Assembly: GCA_951406725.2 (NCBI GenBank)
Contig: OX597819.1
Span: forward strand, 116,374,001-116,438,000
Direction of reading: 5' to 3'
DNA from: Octopus vulgaris
Lineage: Eukaryota
Length of the DNA stretch: 64,000 nt
Shown here: piece by piece, positions 1 through 64,000 of the stretch
How the letters are laid out: every line of letters starts with the position of its first letter
Position numbering within the stretch: the first letter of the stretch is position 1
Notes under the pieces: generated by a model
The model's input: the letters and a program-made list of their open reading frames with translations, nothing else
Databases searched by the model: none
Told to the model about the DNA's origin: nothing
Made by a program: the position numbers and the translations under genes

Positions 1-450
1 ATAGTATAGCACATAACAAAAAAGTAGAACAAAATAGTATGAATAATACCAATTACAATAAAATAACTATACAGAGTAACTAATATAAATCTACAAAGCA
101 TAATAATACTTCATTATCTAGTCAAAATATATACTGTAATTGTATAGACCCAGATATATGAAATTAGACAGGGATAGCAGAGTAAAAACGTCATATACCA
201 GGCAACAGCAATTACGGATCGACGCAGAACTGGGTTAAATTCAGTATACCTAAGAACGAATAGATTTTTAGGGACCAAAATTAAAATGAATAGTACAAGA
301 CTAAGAAAATTAAGGCATATGAAAAAAAATTAACTACACAATCAAATGGAACATATTCGCACATGCACCTAGTTAGAAAATTAGCAATAAATTATGTAGA
401 TTATGCCTAGAAGAAAGCTATAAAATAATGAAACGTAAAGGGAAATTTTG
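1..450 (+). mobile_element. Degenerate Penelope-like element, C-terminal GIY-YIG endonuclease remnant (truncated by window start)
   Basis: Hand translation across frameshifts gives CNCIDPDI, KNVIYQATAITD, YTIKWNIFAHAPS and NKLCRLCLEESYKIM. These match the CNC...VIYxA...IxWxI...CxLCLxE pattern of PLE endonuclease domains. Stops and frameshifts are present. Confidence 0.65.
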
Positions 451-43084: not shown

Positions 43085-43626
43085 CAGGGCTCCAGTCGAT
43101 TAGATCAACCCCAGTACGCAACTGGAAATTAAATTATTGATCCCGAAAGGATGAAAGGCAAAGTCGTCCTCGGCGGAGTTCGAGCTCAGAACATAGAGAC
43201 AGACGTAATACCTATTTCTTAACTAGCCACAAGAGGCTAAACACAGAGAGGAAAAACAAGGACAGATAAACGGATTAAGTCGATTATATCGACCCCAGTA
43301 CGTAACTGGTTCTTATTTAATCGACCCCGAAAGGATGAAAGGCAAAGTCCACCTCGGCGGAATTTGAACTCAGAACGTAACGTCGGACGAAATACCTATT
43401 TCTTTACTACCCACAAGGGGCTAAACACAGAGAGGAAAAACAAGGACAGTCAAACGGATTAAGTCGATTACATCGACCCCAGTACATAACTGGTACCTAA
43501 TTTATCGACCCCGAAAGGATGAAAGGCAAAGTCGACCTCGGAAGAATTTGAACTCAGAACGTCGCGGCAGACGAAATACCGCTATGCATTTCGCCCGGCG
43601 TGCTAAAGTTTCTGCCAGCTCACCGT
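43085..43626 (-). mobile_element. Tandem trimer of SINE family B (~183-bp period)
   Basis: cccgaaaggatgaaaggcaaagtc recurs three times, near 43142, 43326 and 43509. Only the rightmost unit has the head. Confidence 0.88.
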
Positions 43627-54560: not shown

Positions 54561-54990
54561 TTTTCTATTCTCTTTTTCTCTTTTTACTCTTTTTACTTGT
54601 TTCAGTCATTTGACTGCGGCCATGCTGGAGCACCGCCTTTAGTCGAGCAAATCGACCCCGGGACTTATTCTCTGTAAGTCCAGTACTTATTCTATCGGTC
54701 TCTTTTGCCGAACCGCTAAGTGACGGGGACGTAAACACACCAGCATCGGTTGTCAAGCAATGCTAGGGGAACAAACACAGACACACAAACATATTCACAC
54801 ACACTTATATATATATATAAGTGTGTACGACAGGCTTCTTTCAGTTTCCGTCTACCAAATCCACTCACAAGGCATAAGTCGGCCCGGAGCTATAGCAGAA
54901 GACACGTGCCCAAGATGCCACGCAGTGGGACTGAACCCGGAACCATGTGGTTGGTTAGCAAGCTACTTACCAAACAGCCACTCCTGCGCC
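54561..54990 (-). mobile_element. SINE family A, full length
   Basis: Complete reverse-complement match to family A. Confidence 0.92.
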
Positions 54991-55898
54991 TATATTATGC
55001 ATTCTTTTATCTCATTTTTTCTTTCCCTGACTTTCTCCCGCCCCTCCCTCATTTATGTAAAGCCTAACACAAATTGTAAAACCTGTCCCCTGATAATGCT
55101 CCCCTAGCAACTAAATTATCATTAGTTGCATAGGTTTAATGTATGTATGAATATTTCTACATAAATACATACGTGGATAAAAACACGCACAAACATGTAT
55201 ATATGCATAATTATACGCACACTCATACATACACATGAACGCGCGGACACACACTCTGACATACACACACAGACATTCACACATACACACACACACACAC
55301 ATATATATATTAGTATTATTAGTCGATGCCATTTCTGCTCGGTAATTGTAATGTTTTAGCTAATTAACTTGCTCAATACTGTTATTTTTTTTACTGTCCT
55401 TGTCCTACTATTGATTTAATTTTAGTTTACACACACACATATATATTAATGTGTGTGTGTGTGGTTATGTTTGTGTGTGCGTTTATATATATATGTGTGT
55501 GTATGTGTGCATGCACACATGCATACATACCTATCTATCTATCTGTCTGTCTATACACACGTATTTAAACACTACGTACACCTATGTACCCACATACTTG
55601 TCCGAAAAAAATCATTGACAACTAGTATATGGGTCTGAATGCAATATTAATTAGTAGAATTAAATTGGAAGAATTTCGTTCGTTTGTAAATCGTTGTAGA
55701 TGTGTTTGCATTAACGGAAACATAGTGGTAACATATTGGAGGAAGAATCTGAGTTGTTTGCCTTCTCTATGTGCAAACGTATTCAATGTAAAACAGGAAC
55801 GAGATAACAAACATCACTCATATTGAGTTTGGCATCAAGATATAATGTAGAAGGGATCAATTATTGCTTTGGTACTTTGCGTTAGCCATAAATGCTAA

Positions 55899-56291
55899 TA
55901 CTCTTTTACTCTTTTACTTGTTTCAGTCATCTGACTGAGGCCATGCTGGAGCACTGCCTTTAGTTGAGCAGGTCGACCCCAGGACTTATTCTTTGTAAGC
56001 CTAGTACTTATTTTATCGGTCTCTTTTGCCGAACCGCTAAGTTACGGGGACGTAAACACACCAGCATTGGTTGCCAAGTGATGTTGGAGGGGGACAGACA
56101 TACACACAAACATATATATACATATATACGACGAGCTTCTTTCAGTTTCCATCTACCAAATCCACTCACAAGGCTTTGATCGGTCCGAGGCTATAGTAGA
56201 AGAAATTTGCCCAAGGTACTACGCAGTGGGACTGAACCCGGAACAATATGGTTCGTAAGTAAGCTACTTACCACACAGCCACTCCTGTTCC
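55899..56291 (-). mobile_element. SINE family A, full length
   Basis: Complete reverse-complement match to family A. Confidence 0.92.
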
Positions 56292-56608
56292 TTTTCGCTA
56301 TAGGAAGAAATCCTGAAATTTTTGCGGGTGTGGTTAGTCGATTTGGTCGACTGCAATGCTTGACTTGTATGCAATTTATCGACGCTGAAAAGAGGAGAGG
56401 TGGAGCCGGAAGAAGAATGTGAAGCCGCAAGAAAATTGTGAAGCCGGAAGAAATGCTTCTAAGCGTTTTATTCGGCGTACTAACGACTGTGTTTGCTATC
56501 CTCTTTCCTAATTTCTTATAATGATACTTTGATTTTGTTGTAAGCCCGGTCGGCTGGAACTAATCGAATTTATGTTCCGATGCGTTCATATTATTTAGAT
56601 TTCCCATT

Positions 56609-57462: not shown

Positions 57463-57579
<117 letters not shown>

Positions 57580-58121
57580 TCAATATAGGGTAAAAAAAAT
57601 TTTGTAGAATTCTTTTGCCACCAGCGGCCTAGTAGGAAAAAATTAAATAGTCATAGACCATTTTTAAGTTCAACATCAACAATCAAGGAACGGCCATAAT
57701 AGGCCGTTCACCCACTAGAAATAACAGCCAAAGAATTACAGGGTAAATGTTTTTAAAATTTTCTCCTGGTTTACAGAATTAACTTTTATTTGCGGTTGAA
57801 GCTTTGGCTGTTATTTCTAGTGGGTGAACGGCCTATTATGGCCGTTCCTTGATTGTTGATGTTGAACTTAAAAATGGTCTATGACTATTTAATTTTTTCC
57901 TACTAGGCCGCTGGTGGCAAAAGAATTCTACAAAATTTTTTTTGCCACCCTATATTGATTAATTATGAATTTTCTGGTTAATTCTGTAATGGAATCGGCG
58001 GCTTATATTTATTTGCTGCCGATAAATTTGGCGCGAGTGCGACGATTTAAAAATTTTAGGTCAGATATAAACTTGGCAAGGTCGGAAATGCCTCGTGAAA
58101 ATATCTGCTCCGACTTGGGCT

Positions 58122-58228
58122 ATTTCTTACTGATAAATCTGAGGGCCTGTGGAAGATTGGCTTGATTTAATTTAATCAGGTTAGTTTACCATTAATCAGC
58201 AGATGAAACGGTATATCGTATAAGAAAT
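58122..58228 (+). ncRNA. Type I hammerhead ribozyme fold, copy 1 (core variant CUGAUAA)
   Basis: Stem I atttctta/taagaaat, core CTGATAA, stem II atctg/cagat, GAAA, stem III acg-gtatat-cgt, GUA site at 58218-58220. Confidence 0.7.
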
Positions 58229-58613
58229 TACAGGGTAAATGTTTTTTAAATTTTCTCCTGGTTTACAGAATTAACTTTTATTTGCGGTTGAAGCTTTGGC
58301 TGTTATTTCTAGTGGGTGAACGGCCTATTATGGCCGTTCCTTGATTGTTGATGTTGAACTTAAAAATGGTCTATGACTATTTAATTTTTTCCTACTAGGC
58401 CGCTGGTGGCAAAAGAATTCTACAAAATTTTTTTTGCCACCCTATATTGATTAATTATGAATTTTCTGGTTAATTCCGTAATGGAATCGACGGCTTATAT
58501 TTATTTGCTGCCGATAAATTTGGCGCGAGTGCGACGATTTGAAAATTTTAGGTCAGATATAAACTTGGCAAGGTCGGAAATGCCTCGTGAAAATATCTGC
58601 TCCGACTTGGGCT

Positions 58614-58720
58614 ATTTCTTACTGATGAATCTGAGGGCCTGTGGAAGATTGGCTTGATTTAATTTAATCAGGTTAGTTTACCATTAATCAGCAGATGAAA
58701 CGGTATATCGTATAAGAAAT
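58614..58720 (+). ncRNA. Type I hammerhead ribozyme, copy 2 (canonical core)
   Basis: Stem I atttctta(58614-21)/taagaaat(58713-20), CTGATGA 58622-28, stem II atctg/cagat, GAAA 58697-700, stem III acg/cgt with near-palindromic loop. Predicted cleavage 3' of GUA at 58712. Confidence 0.85.
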
Positions 58721-59083
58721 TACAGGGTAAATGTTTTTTAAATTTTCTCCTGGTTTACAGAATTAACTTCTATTTGCGGTTGAAGCTTTGGCTGTTATTT
58801 CTAGTGGGTGAACGGCCTATTATGGCCGTACCTTGATTGTTGATATATATATATATATATATATCAATCAATCTATCTATACACAGACACACGCACTCAC
58901 ACAAACATATACATACATACATTCACATATATATATACATACATACAGACACACACATATATATATAAAATAAAATATATATATACTTCTCATCACAACT
59001 GTCTATCGAACGGGAACGTAAAACAGTAAGTCTTGTGCTAAATGTGCAGCTTTGATATATTTTATTTAATATATATATATATC

Positions 59084-63075: not shown

Positions 63076-63255
63076 TTTAAACGAATATCACGTGTGTTCA
63101 ACAGATGTTATGCACATATGTACCGTACAAAATAATAAGTTAATACAGATTAGTAAATCAATCCATTTCTGTAGGTTCAGCTACATGTTAAATCTATTCG
63201 ATTTATTTTGTTGCTTTGTATAAATGTCATTACATAATGTATATATCATTTCCAT

Positions 63256-63472
63256 CTCTTTTACTCTTTTACTCTTTTACTTGTTTCAGTTAGTTGACTG
63301 CGGCCATGCTGGAGCACCGCCTTTAGTCGAGCAAATCGACCCCGGGACTGATTCTTTGTAAGCCCAGTACTTATTCTATCGGTCTATTTTGCCGAACCGC
63401 TAAGTGACGGGGACGTAAACACACCAGCATCGGTTGTCAAGCAATGCTAGGGGGACAAACACAGACACACAA

Positions 63473-63505
<33 letters not shown>

Positions 63506-63668
63506 CGACAGGCTTCTTTCAGTTTCCGTCTACCAAATCCACTCTCAAGGCATTGGTCGGCCCGGGGCCATAGCAGAAGACACTTGCCCAAGATGCCACG
63601 CAGTGGGACTGAACTTGGAACCATGTGGTTGGTTAGCAAGCTACTTTCCACACAGCCACTCCTGCGCC
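63256..63668 (-). mobile_element. SINE family A, full length
   Basis: Complete reverse-complement match to family A. Confidence 0.92.
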
Positions 63669-64000
63669 TATAGTAGAAAATGTAGAAAAGCGTACATTTT
63701 TCCGATATATCATTATTAAAATAATTTCACTATCTGTTTCAGGAAGAATAAGCTTGAATAATGTATAATTACATGGTTAAAATACATAATTAATGAATTT
63801 TCATCAAATAAATTGTAACGAAATCTTATCCCAAATCATCAGCATTGATGCCAACTATACTTGTTATAATCCGTTGTTGGTTTAAATGCAAGTGAGACAG
63901 AGAAAACGAGCTGTACGTTGCTCAGTGCTGGCGTGGTATCCTCAGAGCAGTGGCACTTTTAAAAAAATATCCACATGAATACACAATTATATTGGTGCGG

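Follow-up and report, generated by a model that had tools for sequence, protein, structure and literature searches.

An insertion in the genome of Octopus vulgaris raises the question of whether the copies of a repeat can be made from RNA that has been cut by the hammerhead ribozyme the repeat carries. The insertion lies in a stretch of 64,000 nucleotides (the window, in whose positions all unprefixed coordinates are given), and the copies compared with it come from a host genome of 2.8 Gb. It consists of a 492-nt non-coding unit in 2.3 tandem copies (57734-58844) and an inverted arm (57572-57733), with TA repeats on both sides. Unit positions are numbered from the first base 3' of the predicted cut (+1 = 58221), and the position matching +1 in the first unit is 57729. 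The features are as follows.

57463..57571, no strand: left target flank, (TATC)n then (TA)n microsatellite
57572..57733, minus strand: arm A (L070), inverted, unit +74 to +238, with a 3-nt deletion near +216
57733..57734, no strand: head-to-head blunt junction, A +74 / B +6, 5 nt past the cut equivalent (57729)
57734..58220, plus strand: arm B, first unit, +6 to +492
58122..58228, plus strand: first type I hammerhead, core CTGATAA
58221..58712, plus strand: arm B, second unit, complete (492 nt), non-coding, +1 = 58221
58614..58720, plus strand: second type I hammerhead, intact, cut after 58712
58713..58844, plus strand: arm B, final partial unit, +1 to +132; its outer end lies on the AT repeat
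58845..58864, no strand: right target flank, (AT)n

The element and its ribozyme

The element can be classified as a type I hammerhead retrozyme without coding capacity; it sits in (AT)n with its two arms head-to-head, and the copy in the window is one young insertion of it, with a layout typical of the family. No long ORF was found in the six frames of the unit. Every base through 57733 is explained by the inverted arm (+238 to +74), whose outer end at +238 lies on the TA repeat, and the ungapped direct match begins at 57734 (unit +6). An earlier note on this DNA had stated that the inverted arm joins at the equivalent of the cut, which the junction at 57733/57734 bears out. It had also placed the start of the direct array at about 57731, some 2 nt from that point. 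This has to be corrected, since AAG at 57731-57733 belongs to arm A and the array starts 5 nt past the cut equivalent; the match 'aagaattac' on which the other placement depends requires a 1-nt deletion in AAA that appears in none of 302 read-through junctions. Other repeats are present in the window, namely a dispersed SINE-like repeat in three copies that are 74-91% alike (54571-54997, 55892-56298 and 63255-63675), and a 184-bp unit in 2.6 tandem copies with 86% matches (43094-43580).

Each unit end bears one type I hammerhead. The GTA triplets at 58218-58220 and 58710-58712 agree with the cut placement of the earlier note, the predicted 3' products starting TAAGAAATTAC at 58221 and 58713. 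The second hammerhead is composed of stem I (ATTTCTTA/TAAGAAAT), the CTGATGA motif, a long stem II, the GAAA motif, a stem III that is short and palindromic, and finally GTA; sequence, fold and conservation together give the CUGANGA / GAAA / NUH core and the three stems, with stem I open, that define type I. In the first hammerhead G8 is replaced by A, a change present in 1 of 121 locus haplotypes, and this copy of the ribozyme is predicted to be inactive because the change lies in the core. The ribozyme-competent fold is predicted to lie 1.8 kcal/mol above the minimum, and an Rfam search of the window at the gathering score gave no match, the hammerhead motif going undetected.

Among the 121 locus haplotypes (19 of 302 sites could not be parsed), the predicted hammerhead core is conserved: outside N7, which tolerates all bases (T 47, A 46, C 17, G 8), CTGANGA shows 3 deviations, and the cut triplet is GTA (90), GTC (28) or GTT (1), never GTG. 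Compensatory changes are present in all three stems. Stem III alternates between two palindromes, ACGGTATATCGT (54) and ACGGTGCATCGT (57), the fifth pair of stem II is G-C (71), A-T (31) or mismatched (12), and stem I has two minor compensatory variants. These represent few independent events, because each change is one event within a subfamily. The computed stability of the stem III 12-mer is -13.6 kcal/mol as a dimer compared with -0.2 alone, and a stem III that is stabler as a dimer has been described for metazoan hammerheads (PMC4209133). Another type I hammerhead family, with the stem III palindrome CGATCG, was observed at L199:100-560 and near position 2339 of L229; in L199 it is arranged head-to-head, and its end, on (AT)n, lies some 35 nt beyond its own cut.

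Genomic copies and the ends of their arms

A search with the whole unit gave 40 loci biased toward full units, so sampling was anchored on the outer ends instead. The A anchor (the +238 end plus TA) had 688 exact matches, the first 84 of which were used, and the B anchor (the +132 end plus AT) had 231, the first 61 giving 59 loci, 40 of them new, with a single complex locus left out. BLAST gave the positions of the arms, and circular extension refined their inner ends, except for an arm in L097 whose boundary was taken straight from BLAST; the inner ends of older copies are uncertain by a few bases because the alignment reference is the unit of the window. The A-anchored set excludes 15 pieces (11 internal, 4 neighbouring insertions or fragments) and the pooled set 14 (all of L184, 5 internal pieces and 1 neighbour), leaving 123 end-anchored insertions with 213 arm 5' ends. 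L184:5-4223 is a palindrome of several kb with nested arms and a duplicated rearranged junction.

The architecture is very regular at the outer ends. An opposite-strand arm ending at +128-132 was found in 63 of 84 A-anchored insertions (the remaining 21 were scored as single-arm), and one ending near +238 in 44 of 58 B-anchored insertions. Outer ends are thus fixed at +238 and +128-132, and 117 of 118 distinct two-armed insertions have one long and one short end, the exception having two short ends. Either arm may be the longer, arrays reach 8 full units among the sampled arms, and the junctions vary from locus to locus (1-4 nt microhomology, blunt, or with templated or (TTTTAAA)n fillers). 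These tandem non-coding units with one hammerhead each, dispersed as 688 and 231 exact end matches, correspond to what is called a retrozyme. At L161:4823-5391 a deleted unit of about 241 nt (+141 to +391 missing) occurs in tandem, with hammerhead and short end retained, as if copied from a mini-circle or a deleted source.

The inner ends were analysed as stops per base at risk along the unit. In the pooled set, 54 of 213 ends fall at +1..+25 compared with 12.2 expected, whereas the 25 nt upstream of the cut hold 8 (10.6 expected) and +26..+50 hold 11 (13.9 expected). The excess is about fourfold over chance within 25 nt downstream of the cut and absent upstream, which makes it a one-sided edge. 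At closer range, +1..+9 contains 16 ends against 3.2 expected and the 9 nt upstream of the cut 4 against 3.1; no clustering is seen at the front edge of the ribozyme (376-425), with 12 ends against 15.4. In the A-anchored set +1..+25 is the top 25-nt window (34 of 147 ends, 8.3 expected; scan-corrected p 0.0002), and the new, independent B-anchored loci, counted with one arm each, give 14 of 39 against 2.7. Taking one arm per insertion in the pooled set leaves 32 of 123 against 6.9, with 4 against 6.0 in the 25 nt upstream. Single-arm insertions have 9 of 33 ends in the interval (1.9 expected), three of these nine carrying small rearranged pieces. Young copies show 34 of 96 (5.2 expected) and older copies 20 of 117 (6.9 expected).

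Two subsets show a smaller excess: arms whose partner ends far away, the class to which the copy in the window belongs, have 10 of 114 ends at +1..+25 compared with 6.5 (p 0.11, not significant), and the set selected for full units has 8 of 64 compared with 3.6 (scan-corrected p 0.32). The edge is also not sharp to the base, the modes being at +5, +8 and +22; 3 of 213 ends lie at +1..+4, so that the ends must be taken as trimmed. On their first pass 44 of 170 arms stop at +1..+25 and 126 continue, about three quarters of first passes reading past the cut site without a scar; later passes contribute 10 ends against 3.5 expected. Of the 302 read-through junctions, 301 are free of indels and the remaining one has a 1-nt deletion, an observation compatible with circles and with uncut multimers equally. 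Unit heterogeneity, compared in 16 long arms, likewise favours neither of the two.

The two arms of an insertion tend to stop together, which suggests that both probably copy the same molecule or source. Among 90 two-armed insertions, 15 have both inner ends close to the cut (odds ratio 25). Of the 75 pairs elsewhere, 11 have stops no more than 8 nt apart, where permutation gives 2.5, and arm lengths correlate (rho 0.52). The mean difference between the arms of one insertion is 0.23 bases, compared with 3.3 between loci and 0.42 for the nearest other locus. Locus-private alleles occur in both arms in 17 cases and in one arm in 94, a split that is expected from later mutation and is no proof of one template.

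Origin of the edge at the cut

The positions of these ends suggest that the copies start preferentially just past the cut, likely since part of the reverse-transcribed RNA had self-cleaved there. The same edge could be produced by a transcription start at about +1..+25 if a promoter made the RNA 5' end and coincided with the cut by chance. The ends are dispersed like a start cluster, and from ATCAG at unit 447 to +12..+15 the distance is 57-60 nt, which is how far the ATCAGT box of U1/U2 genes lies from their start. However, when U1/U2 promoters of five families (38 of 40 loci) were built into a profile, held-out promoters reached 16-24 bits and the best unit site, in seven scanned units, no more than 5.8. 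None of the top-scoring unit sites for this type of profile implies a start within +1..+25, the 16 ends at +1..+9 lie upstream of +12, and the edge falls on the cut of a conserved ribozyme, all of which makes a promoter an unlikely source of the edge. The U1 and U2 genes collected here (L241-L280) have in common an AAT...ATCAGT box 57-61 nt before the start, in 38 of 40 loci belonging to the five families.

Two further accounts place the cause in the template or in the DNA ends. It seems slightly less probable than a promoter that the edge reflects reverse transcriptase halting where it meets the folded but uncut ribozyme from its 3' side (at stem I with an extension to about +14, perhaps protein-bound) and dissociating there. 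The median inner ends (+10 in B arms, +20 in A arms) and a predicted fold in which stem I reaches about +14 are in favour of stalling, whereas the far stronger stem II hairpin (413-476) is depleted of ends (13 against 20.7), the stop rate does not rise with pairing in 18 other windows of the unit (rho -0.43, p 0.07), and the ends at +1..+9 lie within or at stem I, the excess being gone at the cut. The least probable of the three is that the AT-rich self-complementary stretch +5..+33 attracts arm-to-arm end joining whatever the end of the RNA. Many junctions are indeed at its T6-A3-T4 run (+22..+33) or have (TTTTAAA)n fillers, the excess is concentrated where both arms end in that stretch, and the AT-rich window 226-250 has a twofold excess. 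Nevertheless, windows 26-50, 201-225, 276-300 and 426-450, equal in AT content and 4-mer microhomology, have ratios of 0.4-1.4 compared with 5.6, the excess is uncorrelated with AT or microhomology, and single-arm insertions are enriched at +1..+25 too. The stretch probably shapes the positions of the ends inside +1..+25 rather than causing the pile-up.

Self-cleavage of part of the template is the likely reading for the family. The proposal of the earlier note that the cDNA was copied from hammerhead-cut RNA holds at this level, and its expectation that the 5' boundaries of other copies would not be random is confirmed by the edge at the cut; they are spread over +1..+25, though, and not gathered at +1/+2. 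The note had also taken the copy in the window as independent evidence of activity in vivo, a weight that it does not bear, since a single end within 25 nt of the cut would be met about 1 time in 18 by chance (12.2/213). That the +6 end of this copy is a run-off on cleaved RNA is given a chance of about two in three at best, because the arm stopped on its third pass and its partner ends far away.

Related elements and a possible mechanism

Earlier publications describe retrozymes, propose their link with Penelope-like elements and report inverted, truncated copies that have a tail on one side (PMC7229834; PMC8557442; PMC3846280); the element belongs to a known class. A full-text literature search, extending to few subscription papers, gave no paper in which the copy ends of such elements are mapped relative to the hammerhead cut; the pile-up behind the cut is a new footprint. 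As described, metazoan non-LTR retrozymes share with this element the tandem non-coding units that each contain a single type I hammerhead, the AT-rich composition, the hundreds of dispersed copies and the presence of Penelope-like elements in the same genome (PMC7229834; 10.64898/2026.07.22.740005). On the other hand, the unit has 492 nt compared with the 170-400 nt described for their circles, its arms lie head-to-head with two fixed ends in (AT)n (the word 'inverted' is absent from the main text of PMC7229834), and it is described here from its genomic copies.

The layout agrees with mobilisation by a Penelope-like enzyme. Accounts of endonuclease-bearing Penelope-like elements report partial tandems, an adjacent inverted 5'-truncated copy, extension at one end only, microsatellite targets and a hammerhead in the repeat (PMC8557442; PMC3846280), and the partial tandem, the inverted 5'-truncated copy, the one-end extension and the microsatellite target are all found here. 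The unit itself carries no RT plus GIY-YIG ORF such as an autonomous element of this kind has; its ends differ by about 106 nt compared with the 30-40 bp tail of those elements, and its pairing of short and long ends is near-strict (117/118). Regarding a partner, 50 GIY-YIG loci were compared with the unit: the best 30 among 150 that had been scored out of 6136 candidates, and 20 regions with long ORFs. Apart from one separate insertion they had no homology to it, and tblastn with flank comparison at 160 loci revealed no RT/EN joined to an arm, the matches being separate neighbours. A young and abundant element with an intact 781-aa frame (RT and C-terminal GIY-YIG), a coding-like stretch upstream and, on the 3' side, a long region of short repeats was observed at L223:2300-6500 and many other loci; a hammerhead scan alongside it found none, and as a partner it was discarded, having no DNA in common with the 492-nt unit.

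The inverted junctions of Penelope-like elements have been attributed to self-priming on an antisense template (PMC3846280). Here twin priming fits better than the self-priming described there, because both outer ends are fixed and either arm may be the longer; the same reasons speak against one arm having been copied from the other by fold-back, and that model is rejected. The L1 type of twin priming, with arm A stopping at the start of B, was unsupported (ratio 1.1-1.2 at 126-150). The Anolis Poseidon element PAc is similar in that both strands are nicked and extended, the target is AT-rich and two internal RT starts lie downstream of the hammerhead (PMC11167929). According to the same source, however, its start sites show no strand difference, whereas one start of each kind is used per insertion here; insertion in vitro does not depend on its hammerhead, and none of its RNA-seq reads start or end at the cut of that hammerhead. 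In the octopus family copy ends pile up behind the cut. The HDV-like ribozyme of R2, whose cut at the element end makes the template 5' end and leads to variable junctions of microhomology type (PMC3774820), is by analogy a conceptual precedent for ribozyme-defined copy ends. It differs, as reported there, in ribozyme class, in its single-arm insertion in 28S rDNA and in its obligatory cleavage, most templates here being read through.

That the outer ends at (AT)n are fixed on both strands suggests two internal priming events. An RT/GIY-YIG protein of Penelope-like type, acting in trans, would nick both (AT)n strands, and cDNA would begin at two internal sites, one per strand. On hammerhead-cut linear RNA the enzyme would run off at +1; both cDNA ends would then lose as much as about 25 nt, with a greater loss on arm A than on arm B, before being joined through microhomology or short templated fillers. 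If the template were instead an uncut multimer or a precisely ligated circle, it would be read through, giving tandem arrays. A more specific version, in which a dimeric Penelope-type enzyme primes both target strands on one RNA, at two fixed sites of it, and the hammerhead acts as a switch between a cut and an uncut or circular outcome, is put forward tentatively, as somewhat less probable than not. Regarding possible transcripts, clustered sense-strand A-to-G changes at 57975-58466 were noticed in contigs of presumed-RNA runs X1, X5 and X6; in X1 they account for 25 of 50 changed places and resemble hyper-editing of dsRNA from inverted arms. In the contigs of four runs no position gathered many starts or ends, although assembled contigs do not reveal RNA ends.

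The role of the hammerhead in Penelope-like elements has been called unclear (PMC8557442). If the switch exists, cut RNA would give short palindromic stubs without a ribozyme, ending just past the cut, circular or uncut RNA would give ribozyme-bearing arrays able to spread further, and the genome would be a countable in vivo record of cut and ligated templates, at about 1 in 4 first passes. The paired stopping of the arms constrains models of Penelope-type inverted insertion. The one-sided edge of copy ends is genomic evidence for cleaved RNA as a real germ-line template, and it offers a cheap test that can be applied to any hammerhead repeat family.
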